Assembly: GCA_029856045.1 (NCBI GenBank)
Contig: JAHQWG010000047.1
Coordinates: forward strand, 1 to 64,000
DNA from: Promethearchaeia archaeon
Lineage (GTDB): Archaea > Asgardarchaeota > Lokiarchaeia > Sigyniarchaeales > SOKP01
Length of the DNA stretch: 64,000 nt
Reading direction: 5' to 3'
This document shows positions 42,568 to 52,515 of the stretch, piece by piece. Every line of letters starts with the position of its first letter. Positions within the stretch are counted from its first letter, which is position 1. The position numbers and the translations under genes are program-made. Below the pieces are notes generated by a model. The model worked only from the letters and a program-made list of their open reading frames with translations, ran no database searches and had not been told where the DNA came from.

Positions 42568-43245
42568 ATGTCTAAAGACCTATTATTCGAAATGTATCTA
42601 GACCATTTTAGAGAAAACTTTAATAAATATACAAGAAAAGCATTTCGACTGCTTCCTGAATTGGAAAATCCACGTATTCTTGATATAGGGTGTGGTTCGG
42701 GTGTTGCAACTATTGAATTGGCAAAGTTGAGTAATGGTGAAATAATTGGAATAGATATCGACCAATCTCTCCTAGATAAACTGAATAGAAAGATTGATGA
42801 AAAAGGCTTTTCAAATCGAATGAAAGCTTTAAAATGCTCTTTATTCGAGATCGATTTCCCTGATGATAGCTTCGATATCATCTGGTCTGAAGGTTCAATA
42901 TTTATAATTGGTTTTGAAACAGGTCTTAAGGAATGGAGTCGGTTACTTAAAACTAACGGTTTCTTAGTTGTCCATGATGCGAGAAAAAATATTTCAAATA
43001 AGCTTAAGAAGATACCTAACTATGGCTATAAACTTATAAATTATTTTTCATTGCCCGAGGATGTTTGGTGGACAGAATATTATAATCCTCTAGAAAAACG
43101 AATCAAAGAACTACGTAAAAAATATGATAATGATCCAGAAACTCTTAAGATATTTAAAAAGCATCAAAATGAAATAGATATGGTTAAAAAGAATTCTAAA
43201 GATTATAGCTCAATATTTTATATAATGCAAAAATTAATCCATTAA
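42568..43245 (+). CDS. Class I SAM-dependent methyltransferase
   Basis: ILDIGCGSGVATIELA (motif I GxGxG). Confidence 0.7.
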   Translation: MSKDLLFEMYLDHFRENFNKYTRKAFRLLPELENPRILDIGCGSGVATIELAKLSNGEIIGIDIDQSLLDKLNRKIDEKGFSNRMKALKCSLFEIDFPDDSFDIIWSEGSIFIIGFETGLKEWSRLLKTNGFLVVHDARKNISNKLKKIPNYGYKLINYFSLPEDVWWTEYYNPLEKRIKELRKKYDNDPETLKIFKKHQNEIDMVKKNSKDYSSIFYIMQKLIH

Positions 43246-43339
43246 GATGTAAAATTCAAAATTATGTTAAACAATTAAACAAAACTAAGAATTGGTTTTA
43301 CTTCAATATTAATTGGAACTTTTGTTGTTTCTTTTAATT

Positions 43340-43714
43340 TTATTTTTTTATATTTTTAATACTCTCTTTACCATTCTTTTTTCTCTTTTTACTCAAGTCC
43401 AATACCTGCTTCATCTTTTTCCGATAATCTTCGAAGGCGTTTCTTCCCACCCCAGTGAGTTTATACATTGTATGTGGCTTTTTTCCCTTGAATTCCTTTT
43501 TAACTATGATATAGTTCGCATCCTCGAGTTTGCTCATGTGCGAAGATAAATTACCATCTGTCAGACCAGTTTGCCCTCTTAAAAATACGAAATCTGCTTC
43601 TTTGCTAATATATAGATACGCCAAAATCATTACGCGGGCGGGCGCGTAGAATATTTTGTCAATGTCGGTTAGAGATTTCAGTCCTTCACTGCTATTTATT
43701 TCGTTTTCGCTCAT
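43340..43714 (-). CDS. Winged-helix transcriptional regulator (PadR/ArsR-like)
   Basis: 124 aa. ARVMILAYLYISKEADFVFLRGQTGLTDGNLSSHMSKLEDANYIIVKK fits wHTH. Basic C-terminal tail. Confidence 0.5.
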   Translation of the reverse strand: MSENEINSSEGLKSLTDIDKIFYAPARVMILAYLYISKEADFVFLRGQTGLTDGNLSSHMSKLEDANYIIVKKEFKGKKPHTMYKLTGVGRNAFEDYRKKMKQVLDLSKKRKKNGKESIKNIKK

Positions 43715-43718
43715 TGAT

Positions 43719-44351
43719 CTACTCCTCTTTTGGTAATGGATATTTTCGAAAAAAGCGGATTAAAACTACAACTCCCATAATTAATATAATACTTCCCGAA
43801 ATACTAAACGCTATAGCAAAGTGAAAAGGGCTATCGATAAAGGGGTGAATTAGTTCAGAGACAAGCAAACTTAATCCCATAACTATCGCCGTTATATATA
43901 ATCGTGGCGTTTTTAAAAAATAGGCTAAACCACTCATTGGTAAAGTTAAGAATAATAAACCTATGACTAACATAGTAAGTATGGGGTCTGTTTGAATCCC
44001 AAATGGTCTTATTAGCGTAAAAATGAATATAATAAAGGTGATGATTACATTGATTAATAGAAATAACAATAACCTTTTGCTAGTCGGGCTTGTTTTAACG
44101 CTGATTTTAGCAATACCTGTGCGGGGAGCGGCAATATATTTCTTAGCAAAGTAATAAAATGGGAACGCTATCGAAATTATGATAGAATATAATAAAACAA
44201 TATTCCAGGGTAGTGGGATCAACTCCCAAAATACTCCAAAAAATCCCATTCCAATGAATAAAATTGCTAAATAAATATCTAATATCCCATCTTCGCCGCT
44301 AGTCTTGAAAATCTTTTTCTCAACCGTCTTTAAATCGATATTTTCTTCCAT
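43719..44351 (-). CDS. Membrane protein, paralog A of a tandem pair
   Basis: 210 aa. N-terminus DLKTVEKKIFKTSGEDGILDIYLAILFIGMGF is nearly identical in pattern to the next gene. Confidence 0.45.
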   Translation of the reverse strand: MEENIDLKTVEKKIFKTSGEDGILDIYLAILFIGMGFFGVFWELIPLPWNIVLLYSIIISIAFPFYYFAKKYIAAPRTGIAKISVKTSPTSKRLLLFLLINVIITFIIFIFTLIRPFGIQTDPILTMLVIGLLFLTLPMSGLAYFLKTPRLYITAIVMGLSLLVSELIHPFIDSPFHFAIAFSISGSIILIMGVVVLIRFFRKYPLPKEE

Positions 44352-44360
44352 TTTTTCATC

Positions 44361-45017
44361 TCATTCATTAATTGGCTCACTATTTTTTAACGGATATTTT
44401 TTAATAAATCGAGATAAAACAACTAATCCCATAACTATTATAGACCCCCCGGTAATGCTAAAAGCTATGAGGCTATCAAGAGGGCTACCGACTACGGGAT
44501 AAAAGATTTCGGTGAGAAAAAAACCCAACCCCAATACTATTGCAATTATGTACCAGCGAGGCGTTTTCGAAAAATAAGCTAATAAGCTTATAGGTAGAGC
44601 AATGATACCTAATCCAATAGATAACGTAAAAATAATTGGATCAATTTGAACGAATTGAAATAAATCTAAAAACGTCAAAATGAAAAAGATAAAGGAAACG
44701 ACTACATTAATACTTAGGGTTATTACTAATTTCTTCTTGGTTGGACTCGTTTTTACGCTGAGTTTAACGATACCCATACGGGGGGTGGTAATTTTTTTCT
44801 TGCCTATGATTAAAAATGTAAATGCAAAAGCTATTAAAATTAAATATATTCCTAAATATCCCATAACTCCAGGCAATATATCACGAAAAAGTGCTTGTAT
44901 CCCCAAGCTCATAAATAAAATGCCAAAATAGATATCCATTAAACCATCCTCGTTGGTTGTTTTAAATATTTTTTTATCGAGCGCCTTTAAATCAACATTT
45001 TCAGCCATATTTTCCAC
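44361..45017 (-). CDS. Membrane protein, paralog B of a tandem pair
   Basis: 218 aa. DLKALDKKIFKTTNEDGLMDIYFGILFMSLGI and a C-terminal PLK motif are shared with paralog A. Confidence 0.45.
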   Translation of the reverse strand: MENMAENVDLKALDKKIFKTTNEDGLMDIYFGILFMSLGIQALFRDILPGVMGYLGIYLILIAFAFTFLIIGKKKITTPRMGIVKLSVKTSPTKKKLVITLSINVVVSFIFFILTFLDLFQFVQIDPIIFTLSIGLGIIALPISLLAYFSKTPRWYIIAIVLGLGFFLTEIFYPVVGSPLDSLIAFSITGGSIIVMGLVVLSRFIKKYPLKNSEPINE

Positions 45018-45019
45018 AT

Positions 45020-45262
45020 TTAACTTATATTTTTAACTTGTATAATATTGCCGCTTTTATACAATTTTGCTATCTTATTTACTTTTACGAGATAATATAT
45101 CAAAAACCCGATTATTACCCCATTAACTATTGTAAATAAAAATCCTAATAATTCGTTTGCAAAAAACATGTTAAATGGCATCTCCATACATACAAAAATG
45201 CACGTAAAAGACGCTAGAGCAAGCAATTTGCGCTCTTCTTCGCTGTATTCTTTTTTTACCAT
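45020..45262 (-). CDS. Small membrane protein
   Basis: 80 aa with two hydrophobic helices. Upstream (5') of the paralog pair on the minus strand with a 2-bp gap. Confidence 0.3.
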   Translation of the reverse strand: MVKKEYSEEERKLLALASFTCIFVCMEMPFNMFFANELLGFLFTIVNGVIIGFLIYYLVKVNKIAKLYKSGNIIQVKNIS

Positions 45263-45386
45263 TCTTTTCTATTCACCTCCTTTTTCATTATCAACTTTCA
45301 TTTCCATTGCCATGCTTAACCGAAACGATCAAGAATCGACGGAAATAAAAAAAAATAAAAATTGGTATTTATTAATTTTTCAGATT

Positions 45387-47075
45387 TCACTCTAACTTAT
45401 TCAATTTCTTCATGCCAAAATATAACAGTGGAAGGCTAACCCCAATATTGTAGAGAAATACACTCCCATGCATAATAAACATCATTGATTCGCCTGGTAA
45501 TCTCAGGAACATGTCCAACATAATTCCCAGACCAATCGGCAGAAATAATAATGGTTGCAGTAAAAGCATTGATATCATAGTGTTTCCTTTCATTTTTGAG
45601 TCTTTTTCTCCAAATGCAGGAGATATACATTGAATACCCATAGCTGAACACATGGAGATTTGCGAAAATGCCAAAAACTCGCCAAAGAAGATCACCACTC
45701 TTACGATATCGAGATTTGCCAGAATTGAGAATATAGTTGTAATGACAGTTGCTAAGATAATGTTAAATACAAACAATGCTAACAAGTATGAATAAACAAG
45801 TCCTTTTAATCCTCTTGGAGATCTTTTGTAAACCCATATTAGATCTTTAGAATCGACGAAAGCTAGATGTCCGAGAATTATGCTTCCTATGCCTCCACCA
45901 ATTGCAATTAACATTGCTGTTCCAAATCCGAATCCAAAGATATCAGATGCCATACTTGAGATAAACCATGTCATAAATCCTAGAAGACCGACTACATAAG
46001 CAACTCTACCTAAGTTTGCTTTTTTCCTAAAAAACCTCTTTAACTGCATGACAATTAAGCCACCCCACTTGCGCCCTGACGCTTTTCTTACGAGCTTATA
46101 AAACGCATTTTCGTGTTCAACAACAGTTATACTGCTCATCTCGCCTTCACCTTCTAAGCTATAAAAAGATTCAGCTTTTTTATAAGAAACATATAGAATT
46201 GCTAATGGAACGCTGACAGCGAGTAAAAGGTTAACCCATATATTTAAAATGAATGCATCAAGTAAAATCGGATCTATGCTATACAAGATAATATTTGAAT
46301 ACCACAGAGATGGGTAAAACGCTAACCAATTTTTAAGTTCGGGATGTGCCATCAGTTCGTTAAGGAAAAACATTACCCCATACATTATAACAATCGAGAC
46401 AATCGTTAAAACCCATATTAACGCCTTTCCATAATCTCTTGCTTTCTCGCTCTTCGAAATTTTATGTTCAATCCAACTCGCTATAATTGAACCAACCAGA
46501 TTAGCAAAATATACGGTTGCAAAAACACACCCGTATATCGCCACATATTGTATGAAAGTCAAATCTATGATAGGATTTATCAAACCAACTACTATTGGAG
46601 CAAATATTAAAACAAACATCGTATATATCGGCATCTTACCTAAAAATTCTCCTAGAAAGATGTCGTTTGGCTTAACAGGTGTCGCTAACAATGATTCTTT
46701 AAAACCAGTTTCGCTTCTACTATACACATTGTTTAACGGATACATCAAAAGAAATAAAAACATCATCATCATAATCGATTCGATGAGTATCGCAACAACA
46801 GGTTTGAAAATATCGGAGTATTGCACAGCTAAAGTCGGCATAAACAAATCAAATAGGAGTGGTGCGACTATAAACGCCCACAAGAGTAGTAGCGAATATA
46901 ATGAAGTAAAAAATAATATTCGATGGTTTCGGACGCCGCTTGTTCTAATTCTTATCTCGTTTTTCGCAATAGGCTTCCATAAACTCTTCTTTTTATATCT
47001 TATATCAATTGTGCGTTGTTTACTTTCATCGCTGACAGAAGTTTCCAACATTTCTTCTGTGGTTAATAATGTCAT
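45387..47075 (-). CDS. ABC transporter permease (large polytopic)
   Basis: 562 aa, more than 10 TM helices. Start is 7 bp downstream of the ABC ATPase stop. Confidence 0.55.
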   Translation of the reverse strand: MTLLTTEEMLETSVSDESKQRTIDIRYKKKSLWKPIAKNEIRIRTSGVRNHRILFFTSLYSLLLLWAFIVAPLLFDLFMPTLAVQYSDIFKPVVAILIESIMMMMFLFLLMYPLNNVYSRSETGFKESLLATPVKPNDIFLGEFLGKMPIYTMFVLIFAPIVVGLINPIIDLTFIQYVAIYGCVFATVYFANLVGSIIASWIEHKISKSEKARDYGKALIWVLTIVSIVIMYGVMFFLNELMAHPELKNWLAFYPSLWYSNIILYSIDPILLDAFILNIWVNLLLAVSVPLAILYVSYKKAESFYSLEGEGEMSSITVVEHENAFYKLVRKASGRKWGGLIVMQLKRFFRKKANLGRVAYVVGLLGFMTWFISSMASDIFGFGFGTAMLIAIGGGIGSIILGHLAFVDSKDLIWVYKRSPRGLKGLVYSYLLALFVFNIILATVITTIFSILANLDIVRVVIFFGEFLAFSQISMCSAMGIQCISPAFGEKDSKMKGNTMISMLLLQPLLFLPIGLGIMLDMFLRLPGESMMFIMHGSVFLYNIGVSLPLLYFGMKKLNKLE

Positions 47076-47082
47076 TTGAAAT

Positions 47083-47850
47083 CTACCTCGATTTTTTGTT
47101 TTTTTTCTTTCTTTTTCTTTCCTTCTTATTATTGTATTCGTAATTATTAGAGTTTTCGTCTCTCCAAGCTAATAAATCATCGATATGAGACGCACCGGTA
47201 ATTTTTAAGTACGCTTCTTCCAAGTCTTTAGCACCAACAGATTCAATTATTTCTTTTGGAGTACCTTCAACTTTTAGTTCTCCGTCAATAATAATACCAA
47301 TCATATCGCATAATTCTTCAGCCGCATCGAGAAAGTGAGTACAAATGAAAATGGTCTTGTCCGCTTTTTTAGCGAGTTCAGAAATAAGGTCTTTTACCAT
47401 TCTGGCAGCAGCAGGGTCTAAATTCGATGTCGGTTCGTCTAAAAAGATTATTTCAGGATCTTGGATCAACGCTGCACATAAACAAACCTTCTGTTTCATA
47501 CCCCTAGAATAACTCTCTAAAAGATCGTTTTCTCGACCTTCTAAGTCAAACATCTCTAATAACTCATCAATGCGAGTGGAAATCACATCTTTCGGTAAGT
47601 AATACAACTCACCGATAAATTCTAAGAATTCTCTCGCACTAAGTTTAGAATATAAACCAGGAGATTCTGGTAAAAATCCGCAAATCCTTCTTATATCATC
47701 GCTTTGAGTAATTAAATTATACCCGCCAACCGATGCATTCCCAGAAGTTCTAGAAATAATTGCGTTAAGTACTCTTACAGTTGTGGTTTTACCTGCCCCA
47801 TTTGGTCCTAATAGACCATAAGTTTTTCCGTAAGGAATCTGTAAATTCAA
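47083..47850 (-). CDS. ABC transporter ATP-binding protein. The real N-terminus probably extends to about 47930 (no canonical start; see finding)
   Basis: Walker A GPNGAGKTTT, signature YSRGMKQK, Walker B IIFLDEPTSNLD, H-loop. The in-frame upstream ITESYAIRTQNLTKNFGNVLAVNN contains the A-loop aromatic residue but no ATG/GTG/TTG. Confidence 0.85.
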   Translation of the reverse strand: MNLQIPYGKTYGLLGPNGAGKTTTVRVLNAIISRTSGNASVGGYNLITQSDDIRRICGFLPESPGLYSKLSAREFLEFIGELYYLPKDVISTRIDELLEMFDLEGRENDLLESYSRGMKQKVCLCAALIQDPEIIFLDEPTSNLDPAAARMVKDLISELAKKADKTIFICTHFLDAAEELCDMIGIIIDGELKVEGTPKEIIESVGAKDLEEAYLKITGASHIDDLLAWRDENSNNYEYNNKKERKRKKKNKKSR

Positions 47851-48174
47851 ATTATTAACTGCAAGAACATTCCCAAAATTTTTTGTAAGGTTTTGGGTCC
47901 TTATAGCATAACTTTCAGTAATTTTTGACCACCTTATTTTTTTTTGATTTTTTGGTAATTTAATTTAATTTATAATTATAAAGCACTCTGTGATATATAA
48001 GGCTTTGCATCCCAAAGTCATTTGCAATTATTAATTTTTTTATTAAAATATTTACTTCCTTTCTAACGTCCAAAATTAGGGCGTAAAAATATTTATCATA
48101 AAAAAGAAACAAGATTTTCAGAATTAAAACGAAAATTTAAATAAAATGATAAAAAATGGCATTTTATTAAAGAA

Positions 48175-48371
48175 ACTTAAACAAAATTCAGAAGAGTCTC
48201 TTGGAATTTTTTTTTTTCATTTCTCGATTTTATTGAATTTTCCAGATCTGACAATTCAAAGGGGAAGATATTTTCAAATGCACGAGTTAGGAGTTCTTTA
48301 TATTTTTTCTTATCATATTGATGTTTTTTGGAGTCGTACAATTCTGTGAGGATCATTTTTTTATACGCCAT
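48175..48371. repeat. Direct repeat copy A (about 195 bp, about 85% identical) of the PolB2 3'-end coding region at 49082-49278. Retains a 64-aa ORF (48177..48371, minus strand)
   Basis: DNA alignment by eye. Encoded MAYKKMILTELYDSKKHQYDKKKYKELLTRAFENIFPFELSDLENSIKSRNEKKKFQETLLNFV versus the PolB2 C-terminus AHKKVILSELYNPKKHQYDKEKYKELLTRAFKNIIPFELPDLENSIKSRNEERKLQKTLLNFA. Confidence 0.8.
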
Positions 48372-48373
48372 AT

Positions 48374-49027
48374 TTAATTGAATGTTTTAATTAGCCTGAC
48401 ATAATATATTATTATTAATGTTATTAAAAAACTGAAGAAAATAAGGATAAACGGATAAAAAATAAAAAAAAATAATATTGGGAAATATTCTAGCTGATAG
48501 AAACGAAAAATTTGTAATAAGAATACATAAAGAACAACTATTAATAAAAAAATTCCAATGTTTACTCTTCTTTGATATTTATTATAGCATTTTTTACAAT
48601 AATAGCCCTTAGTTGAAAAAAATGTTTTGGGTTTAATGAATTGTCTATTTTTATTCCTAAATATTTCGTTAGAAATAATAACTCCGCAACCTCTACAAAA
48701 TGTTTCATTTCCTAATTCTATGTGAACTTTATTGCTTACATTTCTATAATAACGGATGTGATATATTGATGCATTCTTTCTCATAAAATATGATAAAAGG
48801 AACTTAATGATACAGAGTAAACAGACGGAAATCCATAAAAAATCTACTACAACTCTAGGATCATACATAATAAAGTTAAAACTCTCAAGATGAATAAAAA
48901 GAATTAAACAACCTAATATAGTCAATATAGTATAGAGAATAAAAGCAAGAATTGGTTCAGATGAACCATATTTTTGTTGGGGAATTTCTTTAAATTTTTG
49001 GACTTCCTGAATTTCAATTTTTTGCAT
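48374..49027 (-). CDS. Membrane protein with a CxxC...CxxC zinc-ribbon, bracketed by the PolB 3'-end duplication
   Basis: 217 aa. TM helices at both ends, central CRGCGV...CKKCYNK. Confidence 0.4.
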   Translation of the reverse strand: MQKIEIQEVQKFKEIPQQKYGSSEPILAFILYTILTILGCLILFIHLESFNFIMYDPRVVVDFLWISVCLLCIIKFLLSYFMRKNASIYHIRYYRNVSNKVHIELGNETFCRGCGVIISNEIFRNKNRQFIKPKTFFSTKGYYCKKCYNKYQRRVNIGIFLLIVVLYVFLLQIFRFYQLEYFPILFFFIFYPFILIFFSFLITLIIIYYVRLIKTFN

Positions 49028-49081
49028 AGCTCACATTCTTTTTAGTAAATAGGCTATTTAATAATTAGCATTCTTAACAAA

Positions 49082-51475
49082 TTAAGCAAAATTCAACAGC
49101 GTCTTTTGAAGTTTTCTTTCTTCATTTCTCGATTTTATTGAATTTTCCAAATCTGGCAATTCAAAGGGGATGATATTTTTAAATGCACGAGTTAGGAGTT
49201 CTTTATATTTCTCCTTATCATATTGATGTTTTTTTGGGTTGTACAGTTCCGAAAGGATTACTTTCTTATGTGCTGAACCTGGGTCAGCTTCAGCGTTTGT
49301 AATGATAAATTTTACTTTTTGACCCGCAGACACTGGCACCCCTGCCTTCTCCTTTTGGTTAGCAGCAACTGCTTGATATGAATTTACTTTGTACTGCGAA
49401 GGTTTTCGGGAAACTCTTATTATGACGCTAAGCTCTTCAGTCGTTACATTTCCACTATCAATTTTATCTAAATAATGATATAAAACGCGTTTTGCTTCAG
49501 GGATCTTTGACAAAAATTGTTCTTTGGTTTTCACATTCAAAAAGACATTAATCATTGCCTTCTGTGCCTCTTTCACGATTCTTGGTGTATCTCTGCGTCT
49601 AATATCAATTCCTCTCAGTTTAGTTGTCCCATCGACTCTTACCCCCCAGTAATGATTGAGTGTAGGTATTTTTGGATTCGCACGAGAGGGCATGAATACA
49701 ATGAAATTATATATTCCTTCAATATTAATTGGAATTTTTGTTGCTTCTTCTATTCTTTTGCAAATTTCTTCGCAATCTTTACTAAATTGCTCACTTGAGG
49801 TACCTTTTTTATTTTCTATGAATAGGGAGTCTACAATGCCGTGAATTATTTTATAGCCATATTCACGAGCAATTTCTGCCGATTGCAGTAAGAACTCACG
49901 AGAATACGCACAAACAGTTTGATGCGCCTCTATTCGCCCAAATCGTGAATTCTTGAATCCCAAATATCCAAATGAAACAACGAGTATCCATTTTAACGCT
50001 TTCTGCATATATTTGTACTTAATATCTCCAGTCTCTTTCGCGATTCGTTTGTATACTAATCTTTTTCTCAAAGGAATCTCAATTGATTTTGAAACAATAC
50101 CCCGTCGTTTCTTACAGATATGAAAGTTCAATCCCGGAACTTGAATTGCTGAAGGATCATCTTTGCAACATTTACAATTGAGGGTTTCGGGTGAGATATT
50201 ATATATACTCATTAATGAGGGGTACATTGAAGCAAAATCTAATTCAGCAACATTATTAAACACTCCGATCTTTGGCTCAAAGATATGCCCACCCCTATCT
50301 GCTAAAATTAAATCGAGAGCTGTTTTGAAGTCTTCTGCATTACTTTTTAAAGGTGGAATAAGAATATCCGACTGATAAGCGTTATAGAATTGAATTGATT
50401 GTAGGGCGCCACCAATTGTAACTCGGGTAAGTCGTTGTATTGGAACTCGGGACACTCGCGCAACTTCAAGGACCCCTGGTATGTTGCCATCGATGAAATG
50501 AAGGCTTCCGTAGGCTGAAGAGTCCAAATGAAATCGACCAGTTAAATAACATTGGGTTTGCGAACGACGATATATGATCCCGTAGGAAAAAAAATGGTCC
50601 TCACCATTTAACTTGAATATTCCGCTCTTAAGGGGAGTTTTAGTCCGAGAGAGATAAAATCTTCTTGTAATTCGATTTGTTGAAGCCCGGGCAACTAAAT
50701 AGGGCATTCCAAATTCGTCACCCCTTGTTGTAAGAATAATATCTGGATCAATTCTTTCGATAGTTCGGACTATCTCCAACAAATTTTCCTCCTCGTCACC
50801 ATTATCAATAAGTATGGTTCTTCTAATCGGAGAATCGGCTCTAGGCATGTCTGCCTTTCTTTCATTCTCGACAATTCCTATTTCCGCGTATGCCATTGGC
50901 TCATTGAATTGTGGTTTCAAACCCTTCTGCTGGACTTTGATCTCCAACCAAACCGCCCTCAAGGGAGGCGTCTCATAAAACAAATCTTCGTTGTTATCCT
51001 TTAACTCATAAGAGAGCAAATACATTTCATTATTTTCACCCAAACTCACTGAAAAGCAACACAAAGCCATTGGAAAGAGACTATTCACGTAGAAATACAT
51101 TTGAGCAATTGGAATGTCAGTATTATATAACGTGAAATAATCAAGTTTTTCGATATCTTTTATTGTAGATTTAAATACAGAAGGCTTTTTTACTGACACC
51201 CCAAAAATCATCCTTTTTTCGCAATCGTCAATCGAGACATACTTACTGCAAAGTCTTGCTCTGACAATATTTGGGTGGGATTTGAGGATCTGCTTCAGCC
51301 TTGGAAAATCGCTTCCAAATCGCCCTTTTTTTGGAACTGCGAAAAATTCTGGCTGAAACTCAGATTTAATCTGAACTACTTGGTTTTCTTTTTTTGTTTT
51401 GACCCATAAAATAATCCCACTTGCATATGTGGTGACGTCCAATATCCATCCGTAGAAGTTCTTTATCTCAGTCAT
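49082..51475 (-). CDS. Family B DNA polymerase paralog with degenerate exonuclease and motif-C residues (PolB2-like)
   Basis: Motif A DFASMYPSLM is intact. Exo I changed to WLEI, Exo II FD changed to FG (RGDEFGMPYL), motif B KWILVVSFGYLG (N changed to V), motif C HGIVDS instead of YGDTDS. Confidence 0.8.
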   Translation of the reverse strand: MTEIKNFYGWILDVTTYASGIILWVKTKKENQVVQIKSEFQPEFFAVPKKGRFGSDFPRLKQILKSHPNIVRARLCSKYVSIDDCEKRMIFGVSVKKPSVFKSTIKDIEKLDYFTLYNTDIPIAQMYFYVNSLFPMALCCFSVSLGENNEMYLLSYELKDNNEDLFYETPPLRAVWLEIKVQQKGLKPQFNEPMAYAEIGIVENERKADMPRADSPIRRTILIDNGDEEENLLEIVRTIERIDPDIILTTRGDEFGMPYLVARASTNRITRRFYLSRTKTPLKSGIFKLNGEDHFFSYGIIYRRSQTQCYLTGRFHLDSSAYGSLHFIDGNIPGVLEVARVSRVPIQRLTRVTIGGALQSIQFYNAYQSDILIPPLKSNAEDFKTALDLILADRGGHIFEPKIGVFNNVAELDFASMYPSLMSIYNISPETLNCKCCKDDPSAIQVPGLNFHICKKRRGIVSKSIEIPLRKRLVYKRIAKETGDIKYKYMQKALKWILVVSFGYLGFKNSRFGRIEAHQTVCAYSREFLLQSAEIAREYGYKIIHGIVDSLFIENKKGTSSEQFSKDCEEICKRIEEATKIPINIEGIYNFIVFMPSRANPKIPTLNHYWGVRVDGTTKLRGIDIRRRDTPRIVKEAQKAMINVFLNVKTKEQFLSKIPEAKRVLYHYLDKIDSGNVTTEELSVIIRVSRKPSQYKVNSYQAVAANQKEKAGVPVSAGQKVKFIITNAEADPGSAHKKVILSELYNPKKHQYDKEKYKELLTRAFKNIIPFELPDLENSIKSRNEERKLQKTLLNFA

Positions 51476-51732
51476 TTACTTTTTTCCAATTCGCTTATTC
51501 TTTTTTCTAATTCCTCAATTCTTTTCTCTTGTTCAAGTGCTACTGAGAAAAAGAGAAATTCAGATAACACAGGTCTAGCTGCCATACTCCCAGCATCAGC
51601 ATGAATTCGAGCGTGATCCATTACTTGATCGAAAAATTTTCTCTCTTCAGGGCTTAGAGCCCTTTTGAAATCTTTCCAGCTCTCAATCTCCATTTCAAGC
51701 GCTGGACGGAAAGACGGAACTGTTCTACCCAA
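51472..51732 (-). CDS. Hypothetical small protein, translationally coupled (4-bp overlap) to PolB2
   Basis: 86 aa. C-terminal coiled-coil EQEKRIEELEKRISELEKSK. Confidence 0.4.
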   Translation of the reverse strand: MGRTVPSFRPALEMEIESWKDFKRALSPEERKFFDQVMDHARIHADAGSMAARPVLSEFLFFSVALEQEKRIEELEKRISELEKSK

Positions 51733-51765
51733 TTATTTCACCTCAATTTTTATTTTAGCTTGGTT

Positions 51766-52515
51766 TTAGGAAAACCAAAAATCTAATGTCGTATTTTTTA
51801 AGGTTTTAGATCTATCTACTTTTTGCTTGCGGGCTTTCCATCTGACAACCTTTTTATTAGGCAAGTATGGATGTTGGATTAGTCGATACTCAGTAAAGCG
51901 ATCCTCATCGTTAATCAGAACTAATACATTTGCGAAATGAGAGAGTATATTACCCCCCTTTACTCGAACATAAGAATATTCATGAAGTGGTGCCGTTAGA
52001 ATAACCAATGATTTCGTTTTTTGTGCGACTTTCTTTATGCCATTTATAGCCCTTGATAAGTCTTCAAATGTACTTTGTTCATAATTCCCAAATAGCTTGG
52101 TTATTCCAGAAACCAGAACCATTCTTATATCATCAATCTTTAATAACTTATTCTCTAAGATTTCGACCATTTGAGGCCATGTGAATGCCCGAGAGATCAA
52201 AATATTGCCTAACACTAATGAAGGACTTAATCGCATTGATAAGGCTAGAGTACTTATTTTATAGGGACTGAATCTATTTGTTGCATCGATGTAGGCGATT
52301 CTCCCACCGAGACCGTCATCAAGAAATCTTTTTTGAAAACTTACCGCCGTCGAATGCAAAATATCATTTGTGATTTTTTTGGAGCCATATAGTAAATATA
52401 TTAATTCTTTGTGAAATCCTCCTTGTAATAATTCATCTAGTTTAGAATCCCCACTCGGAATTAAAGGATATTTGCTGTTTTCTTTGTGATATGCGTAGCC
52501 TGAAAGCAACTCCAT
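51766..52515 (-). CDS. RecA-superfamily RadB-like protein with degenerate Walker A/B (probably non-catalytic)
   Basis: IPSGDSKLDELLQGGFHKELIYLLYGSKKIT parallels RadA/RadB (STGSK.LD.LLGGG...G..GSGKT), but the P-loop is YGSKKIT and no Walker B aspartate is evident. Confidence 0.5.
   Translation of the reverse strand: MELLSGYAYHKENSKYPLIPSGDSKLDELLQGGFHKELIYLLYGSKKITNDILHSTAVSFQKRFLDDGLGGRIAYIDATNRFSPYKISTLALSMRLSPSLVLGNILISRAFTWPQMVEILENKLLKIDDIRMVLVSGITKLFGNYEQSTFEDLSRAINGIKKVAQKTKSLVILTAPLHEYSYVRVKGGNILSHFANVLVLINDEDRFTEYRLIQHPYLPNKKVVRWKARKQKVDRSKTLKNTTLDFWFS

Follow-up and report, generated by a model that had tools for sequence, protein, structure and literature searches.

A duplicated DNA polymerase gene end in a Promethearchaeota genome, a probable junction scar of DNA exchange between related lineages

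Introduction

When the last codons of a conserved replication gene are found a second time a short way downstream of it, the question arises whether the duplicate marks the integration of a mobile element, constitutes a working gene or is a by-product of recombination. Such a duplicate occurs in a stretch of 64,000 nucleotides (nt) from contig JAHQWG010000047.1 of GenBank assembly GCA_029856045.1 (positions 1 to 64,000, forward strand), the whole of which is hereafter called the window. In it, a gene for a family-B DNA polymerase (PolB) has its 3' end repeated beyond a single gene for a membrane protein of 217 amino acids (aa). The polymerase end in its proper place is termed copy A, the displaced end copy B, and an eroded third remnant further downstream copy C. 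The source organism is a Lokiarchaeia-like metagenome-assembled genome (MAG) of the Promethearchaeota, the archaeal group closest to eukaryotes. The window has a G+C content of 31%, one tRNA and no further Rfam match.

The repeat is best regarded, at a probability of about 0.7, as a junction scar of DNA exchange between related Promethearchaeota lineages, in which one polymerase gene end was replaced by another and the repeat would have no function of its own. Relatives of the locus, numbered here with the prefix L, were drawn from a scan of species-representative genomes with PolB, which returned Promethearchaeota MAGs, from look-ups with the 217-aa protein and with the permease of a neighbouring ATP-binding cassette (ABC) transporter operon, and from one metagenome scan. 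The comparison lineages share about 92–95% PolB nucleotide identity with the window, L101 being more distant at 86%.

The direct repeat and the arrangements of the locus

Positions 48174–48364 and 49079–49269 form a direct repeat of 191 nt, ungapped and 86% identical, with 905 nt from start to start, and past both stop codons a fainter, gapped similarity extends for about 25 nt. An initial annotation, made from the sequence alone, had claimed a same-orientation duplication of the PolB 3' end of about 195 bp at about 85% identity, and the alignment bears it out: the local alignment of the two copies scores 255, a significant similarity when 200 shuffles give 22.5 ± 2.6 with a maximum of 32. No other direct repeat of at least 60 nt is present anywhere in the 64-kb window.

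Copy A (49079–49276, minus strand) comprises the last 64 codons of the resident PolB (797 aa; 49082–51475, minus strand), which encode the end of the thumb domain and a C-terminal QKTLLNFA that reads as a motif resembling the PCNA-interacting protein (PIP) box. Copy B (48177–48371, minus strand) is an intact open reading frame (ORF) of 64 aa that ends in QETLLNFV and is identical to the PolB tail at 50 of 64 residues; MAYKKMILTELYDSK is an example of a peptide unique to it. Its ATG stands at the onset of the similarity, 2 nt past the stop codon of the 217-aa gene. That gene (48374–49027, minus strand) is, as had been annotated, the sole ORF between the copies and encodes an ORFan membrane protein with hydrophobic ends and a central CxxC...CxxC ribbon (CRGC...CKKC). 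The scar is compound, since copy B is followed by the ABC operon, which forms a further cassette of 4.9 kb, and then by the third, eroded PolB remnant, both of which had been missed in the initial annotation; the search toward about 43 kb for further repeats and for integrase remnants yielded this copy C and no integrase.

The arrangement varies among close relatives, and an uninterrupted PolB 3' end does exist. In L018, PolB is followed directly by a convergent methyltransferase gene (42568–43245 in the window, plus strand, assigned by Pfam), which is the conserved right-hand flank in all arrangements and is colinear in L018, L019, L023, L025, L026, L028 and L099. In L019, L023, L025, L026 and L027, PolB with copy A is followed by the 217-aa gene, copy B and the methyltransferase gene; in L028 by the ABC operon, copy C and the methyltransferase gene; and in L099 and L101 by the ABC operon and the methyltransferase gene with no extra fragment. 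The window itself reads PolB with copy A, 217-aa gene, copy B, ABC operon, eroded copy C and methyltransferase gene. The ABC cassette is thus missing from L018 and the L019-type lineages and follows PolB in L028, L099 and L101. Homologues of the 217-aa protein are confined to the species cluster of the window (80–100% identity), and their gene always lies between PolB and copy B; every relative that has it also has copy B, and the joint between the two is identical (TTCAATTAAATATGGCG).

It could be suspected that metagenome assembly merely joined two strain variants through their shared PolB end, and indeed contigs of this strain often end inside the 217-aa gene (L001–L005, L007, L008) or begin just upstream of copy B (L013, L014, L016), breaks for which strain variants that co-exist at this locus may be responsible, or else tangles that the repeat causes in the assembly graph. 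The window arrangement was however recovered in seven public metagenome contigs (L006, L009–L012, L015, L017) from three sources (JGI, ENA, Logan), which makes an assembly artefact a very unlikely origin. Identical PolB and 64-aa proteins occur in at least seven contigs from these sources, the structure of 217-aa gene and copy B is present in five further diverged lineages, and the two copies differ by 14%, so that neither collapse nor chaining would be expected. The chance of an artefact is therefore practically negligible.

Origin of the duplicated ends

The position of the copies relative to their flanks indicates which end was there first. Copy B and the ABC operon of the window (48368 to 45348) constitute one colinear block with the resident PolB end and ABC operon of L099, L101 and L028, all of which are without the 217-aa gene; in L019-type genomes the copy B tail and its downstream flank equal the sequence that follows PolB in L018. 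It follows from this colinearity that copy B holds the original gene-end position and that copy A together with the 217-aa gene is the insert. The different origins that had been proposed for the two copies are likewise recovered here, as the histories of A and B differ. Six residues separate all A copies from all B and C copies, and at five of these six (D13, E33, F36, K/R53, V/I64) copies B and C share the majority state of 47 distant PolB tails. The idea that copy B is the untouched original end because of these outgroup-shared residues was dropped, for K33 stands in the resident ends of L099 and L101 too and makes the polarity of the sequence types ambiguous; the assignment of copy B as the displaced end is made from the positional evidence and not from residue polarity.

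On these grounds a very slight chance is given to a purely local event, in which the PolB end would have been doubled by tandem duplication or replication slippage and the 217-aa gene inserted afterwards, without DNA from a foreign lineage. The copies do lie close together in direct orientation, and a templated 39-nt filler at copy C (described below) shows that error-prone local repair happens here. Yet at five of the six fixed differences the outgroup state is found in copy B and the derived state in copy A, the functional one, whereas a local duplicate in decay would give the reverse; the last 25 nt and the 3' flank of copy A are sharply unlike those of copy B; and in L028 the sister duplication can be seen directly to have come from exchange between lineages.

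The PolB of L028 is a chimera. Its nt 1–1725 are 97–100% identical to L018 or L023 and 85–91% to L101, while from about nt 1750 to the stop codon it is 95–100% identical to L101 and 82–91% to the others; the synonymous divergence (dS) between L028 and L101 is 0.06 in the tail vs 0.39 in the body. The gene accordingly consists of 1.7 kb at the 5' side from one lineage and 0.65 kb at the 3' side that are near-identical to another, and the ABC operon is likewise L101-like. Copy C of L028 (17162–17401) occupies the same position as the window remnant and is fuller, with 78 codons from about codon 717 to the stop and no start codon. Together with the methyltransferase and aminotransferase genes it is colinear with PolB nt 2154 to the end and the same genes of L018 (93%), and the donor tract reaches 0.4 kb upstream of the duplicated segment. 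The simplest reading of these alignments combines a single homologous crossover within PolB with a single non-homologous joint at about codon 717 of the recipient, by which the donor PolB end and the operon would have been inserted and the end of the recipient left behind as the fragment called copy C. For the sister duplication beside the ABC operon, the sequence comparison thus puts on display the type of event, a homologous crossover combined with a non-homologous joint, from which it appears to have arisen.

For the first event, the insertion of copy A with the 217-aa gene, we infer the same course from the analogous case of L028. A segment in which the 217-aa gene came after a PolB 3' end (copy A) would have recombined into the resident PolB, with one homologous crossover within the gene and the other joint non-homologous, at codon 733/734 of the resident gene. 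PolB would have remained intact through the incoming end, and the resident end, now copy B, would have been shifted downstream and lost its function. Such an event would resemble homology-facilitated illegitimate recombination or, equivalently, an insertion of the Campbell type. Homology-facilitated illegitimate recombination combines a one-sided homology anchor with a non-homologous joint and is known in naturally transformable bacteria. The locus is like it in that the donor tract of L028 starts at a homologous crossover in a conserved gene, continues through foreign genes downstream of it and ends at a non-homologous joint, in that no dedicated recombinase gene is needed and in that the cargo is ordinary chromosomal DNA. 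It is unlike it in that the joint falls past the crossover and still within the anchor gene, which yields a partial end duplicate and not a deletion, and in that the duplicate later serves as a second homology arm for loss and transfer; moreover, the host archaeon is not known to have a transformation system.

Once a cassette has PolB homology on both sides, recombination between the repeats could remove it and would leave hybrid ends, and the cassette could also be transferred to any related genome through a double crossover. Ends of this hybrid kind are found. The single end of L018 is A-type to about nt 161 and then continues with a B-type tail and B-type flank; the end of L099 is A-type in its 5' and middle parts with a B-type tail; and the tail and flank of L028 equal those of copy B in the window. 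Judged by their sequences, the hybrid ends are the product that would be expected of loop-out between direct repeats, and since the end of L018 is an A/B hybrid, its empty site is more likely a secondary loss. The window's copy B is a mosaic as well: over the first 60 nt it is closest to the copy B sequences of relatives, and over the last 65 nt and the flank to the resident ends of L028 and L101 (61/65 and 41/45). The cassette of copy A, 217-aa gene and copy B has probably entered a genome in which PolB was followed by the ABC operon, through crossovers in the PolB body and between the donor copy B and the resident end of the recipient.

Sliding-window identity along PolB between the window and L018, L023, L025, L026, L028 and L099 varies from 88% to 99% within the gene, and the best partner changes by segment. 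This pattern points to frequent homologous recombination inside the species cluster, where PolB is a patchwork of recombination tracts.

Coding status of copy B

The initial annotation had pointed to an intact 64-aa frame that starts where the similarity begins, which holds for the lineage of the window and fails elsewhere, because the five relatives that carry copy B all have it in disrupted form, with three different lesions among them. L019 and L026 have a 1-nt deletion at codon 4 and an in-frame TAA ahead of the PIP motif; L025 has a TAA at codon 3 and additional lesions; and L023 and L027 have a 1-nt deletion at codon 7. Divergence between the B copies of different lineages (7–14%) is several times that between A copies (0.5–5%) and comparable to the synonymous divergence of PolB (0.10–0.25), which fits an apparently near-neutral decay. 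Among A copies of different lineages, the ratio of non-synonymous to synonymous divergence (dN/dS) is 0.08–0.29.

These lesions bear on the alternative that copy B is a working gene, namely a thumb end of 64 aa with a PIP-like box that would be co-transcribed with the 217-aa gene and might act as a decoy or regulator of PCNA. The window lineage has an intact frame whose ATG comes 2 nt past the upstream stop, and it retains the Qxx[L]xxF[V] motif at the C-terminus, where QETLLNFV fits a PIP motif of the type Qxx[LIM]xx[FY][FYLIV] when read from the sequence. The dN/dS against copy A is 0.24, and the predicted protein is 100% identical in 18 of 18 contigs read. These 18 contigs, however, represent the same strain and are uninformative on selection, and the ratio is equally low (0.17–0.24) in the lineages in which copy B is broken; being alike whether copy B is intact or not, dN/dS between A and B carries no information on function and was dropped as a functional test. 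The frameshift or stop ahead of the PIP motif in five of five related lineages with copy B speaks against a conserved product, as do the analogous fragments elsewhere, which mostly have no start codon, and a search of 5.8 billion proteins, which at its sensitivity returned no stand-alone homologue of the 64-aa ORF beyond its own cluster and lineage. The open frame of the window is explained by its mosaic make-up, since most of that copy, its 3' part, was presumably a working PolB end until recently. A working gene is thus very unlikely from what can be read in the sequence, and copy B is most likely a relic.

The 217-aa gene is itself weakly constrained, with a dN/dS of 0.5–1.06, a frameshift in L023 and a truncation in L025, and its product has no match in Pfam, NCBIfam, PHROG or PADLOC.

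Search for mobile elements and comparison with known systems

The arrangement had been taken for the classic footprint of site-specific integration into a protein-coding gene. Part of this description stands, for the locus does carry an insertion or recombination scar at which the gene end was reconstituted and the older end displaced; the part that finds no support is the site-specific integration of a mobile element. The accompanying remark that no integrase is visible nearby agrees with the searches in Pfam, PHROGs and PADLOC, which found no integrase, transposase, replication or virion gene in the cargo of the window, in that of L028 and L046 or in the ORFs beside stand-alone fragments. 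Among 150 ORFs flanking PolB ends at about 60 related loci, no gene of these kinds is present in the best 25 of 37 matched PHROG families; NCBIfam likewise gave no recombinase, and viral contigs scanned with the 217-aa and 64-aa proteins gave no match. The suggestion that the locus is the edge of a decayed integrated element is not supported, in view of a cargo of ordinary cellular genes without mobile-element genes and of duplication boundaries that vary (about codon 717 vs 734, among others).

Under site-specific integration the repeats would be the attL and attR of one or two elements that targeted the PolB 3' end, brought a substitute end and have since lost their integrase. The geometry fits, in that the reconstituted gene and a partial 3' end lie on either side of the cargo; L018 offers an empty site; the same gene end is repeatedly affected in distant lineages, with fragment starts mostly at codons 717–749; and the resident tail of L046 departs from its relatives in its last part. 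Against this, the complete bracketed inserts of the window, L028 and L046 contain no recombinase, nor do the PHROG families listed (best 25 of 37) for the roughly 150 flanking ORFs; the cargo is cellular, the ABC operon being conserved in Promethearchaeota; there is no match in viral contigs; there is no fixed boundary, fragments starting at codons 657, 717, 724, 734 and 736–749; and the hybrid ends cross over at differing positions. The 0.65-kb donor tract in the PolB of L028 is much longer than the duplicated segment, which fits a homologous crossover and not an att core. On balance such an integration is unlikely.

Published systems help to place the locus. The integrated elements described from Asgard archaea in PMC8813620 and PMC11529989 use tyrosine integrases with attachment at tRNA genes or at a short AT-rich motif, with no mention of PolB as a target, and in our literature search no account of insertion at PolB in Asgard archaea came up. 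The present locus shares with those elements the broad host group and the way in which variable regions are revealed by comparison of close genomes, and differs from them in having nothing comparable to their tyrosine integrases or attachment sites (PMC8813620, PMC11529989).

A parallel in geometry comes from Escherichia coli, where phage 21 and e14 integrate at the 3' end of icd and bring a substitute gene end. As there, a partial target 3' end brackets the insert, the gene is intact with a diverged end and the displaced end persists; unlike there, no integrase, phage or plasmid genes were found, boundaries and crossovers vary, and one insert is just about 0.7 kb with a single ORFan. The locus also recalls integron cassette arrays in its serial cassettes (the 217-aa ORF, then the ABC operon), each followed by a repeat copy and independently present or absent among relatives, but it has no integron integrase, its repeat is coding sequence and not a folded attC, and its exchange appears to be ordinary homologous recombination.

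Displaced ends in distant lineages

The metagenome scan, made with a PolB-tail alignment, yielded 71 loci. Outside the species cluster of the window, a second PolB tail on the same contig was found only in L028 and L046 when each locus was searched with its own C-terminal peptide. In L046, a lineage of 53% identity, the second tail lies 3.2 kb downstream of PolB, and the first half of the resident tail is identical to relatives while the second half is aberrant. Displaced tails beside varied ordinary cargo are present at L046 and, as tails that stand alone without an upstream PolB, after a LigA-like gene (L066), after TPR genes (L076, L077, L086), after a giant WD40 gene (L093), after MobA/MobB and elongation factor P (EF-P) genes (L091) and at L065, L080 and L081. 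Some of the stand-alone tails are followed by a GyrI-like gene, the usual PolB neighbour in those lineages. Most of the distant fragments have no start codon, and they begin from about codon 657 to 749. In two of the more distant Lokiarchaeia-like contigs, genes that look bacterial stand directly upstream of a stand-alone tail, these being the C-terminus of an NAD-dependent DNA ligase with BRCT (L066, 1–939) and EF-P (L091, 135–767).

The displaced tails in distant lineages suggest a recurring route of gene gain. As PolB tails alone were searched, their recurrence at PolB ends may represent a real hotspot or ascertainment bias. A bolder proposal would make the PolB 3' end a dedicated cassette-exchange site, integron-like without an integrase and possibly aided by the RadA/Rad51 paralogue that is encoded two genes upstream, with some of the displaced tails serving in addition as PIP-box peptides that compete for PCNA. 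We hold this to be distinctly unlikely; if true, pieces of a polymerase tail would be portable recombination sites for gaining, losing and swapping genes or operons between lineages.

Weighing of the evidence

Several observations weigh against an exchange between related lineages as the source of the repeat. No genome was found in which the 217-aa gene follows PolB without copy B, so that the donor of copy A and the 217-aa gene is missing and the first event is reconstructed by analogy with L028. The order of import in L028 might also be reversed, its 5' part being the later import. Likewise, in the PolB of the window no single recombination breakpoint tied to copy A was found, only the general patchwork.

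The residues and distances of the copies raise a second set of difficulties. Copies B and C have E33 and F36, near-invariant in the 47 outgroup tails, and all resident ends including L101 have K33. The divergence between copies A and B (14–18%) is too low for a copy B that predates the split from L101, for which the dS of the PolB body is 0.5–0.57, and convergence, gene conversion between the copies or an unsampled donor must be invoked to account for it. Comparisons of broken with broken B copies give a dN/dS of 0.3–0.4 over about 60 codons, a value below 1 that near-neutral decay does not fully explain. At both junctions between cargo and fragment a cargo stop codon is only a few nucleotides away, a neatness that random joints would not usually show, and a weak single integrase match could lie beyond the best 25 of the 37 PHROG families.

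Polymerase gene, ABC operon and deletion joint

The PolB of the window is supported by Pfam matches above cut-off to DNA_pol_B (PF00136, 2.7e-33) and DNA_pol_B_exo1 (PF03104, 9e-10); a match to the NCBIfam type B polymerase lies below its curated cut-off. Its nearest solved structures are PolB enzymes of Thermococcales. In alignment to Pfu PolB, motif C reads HGIVDS vs YIDTDG in Pfu, the first aspartate of DTD being not conserved, and copy A aligns with the end of the Pfu thumb domain, from about residue 712 up to the last aligned residue, 735. The PolB tails of more distant relatives close with QKSLESFF, QKDLSCFI and similar sequences. PolB is the last of a three-gene set on the minus strand (51472–52515 and 49082–51475) that begins with the Rad51/RadA-like paralogue (249 aa) and a DUF8156 protein (86 aa); the stop codon of the latter overlaps the PolB start, and the set is kept in all relatives examined.

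The ABC operon (43340–47850, minus strand, assigned by Pfam) encodes, all on that strand, an ATPase (47083–47850), an ABC-2 permease (45387–47075), an 80-aa ORF (45020–45262), membrane proteins of 218 aa (44361–45017) and 210 aa (43719–44351) and, at its end, a winged-helix regulator of the HTH_34 family (43340–43714). The permease family is widespread across Promethearchaeota and lies at another site in L100, so the cargo is ordinary chromosomal DNA. The adjacent genes for the 218-aa and 210-aa proteins (43719–45017) are paralogues and constitute a tandem duplication with no match in Pfam, PHROG or PADLOC; at this point L028 and L101 hold extra genes, for a CAAX/Rce1-like protease and small Zn-ribbon ORFs, which the window is without. 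In PADLOC, the ABC ATPase gave a match and the HTH_34 protein matched Csa3 weakly (9e-9), both being generic domain matches.

In L028 as in the window, the first nucleotides of the PolB-derived sequence already contain the HTH_34 stop codon, the homology at this joint beginning at CAAAAA(A/G)TAAAATTT and overlapping that stop codon. The protein is 110 aa long in L099 and 82 aa in L100, and the joint may have trimmed its C-terminus. What remains of copy C in the window, by alignment with copy C of L028, is a terminal remnant of 17 nt (43276–43292, minus strand) that comprises the final codons of a PolB end with their stop, TTCTTAGTTTTGTTTAA, and the flank beyond it on the methyltransferase side equals the flank after copy C in L028. 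Next to it stands the 39-nt filler (43298–43336, minus strand), identical at 35 of 39 positions to PolB-internal sequence at 49752–49714 (encoding EEATKIPINIEG; self-BLAST E 1e-9). It occupies the site where about 230 nt of copy C are gone relative to L028, its source lies 6.4 kb away, and by its sequence it looks like templated DNA at a deletion joint. An estimate from the 39-nt match, that copy C was once at least 680 nt long, was ruled out, because the alignment with copy C of L028 shows the filler replacing the 230-nt deletion.

Conclusions

For annotation, the 64-aa ORF should not be counted as a new gene, nor should a prophage or an integrated plasmid be deduced from the repeated PolB tail. 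The locus is a clean natural record of gene-content change beside a conserved replication gene. One-sided homologous events leave partial duplicates of gene ends, and these duplicates then become homology arms that ease the loss and transfer of cassettes.

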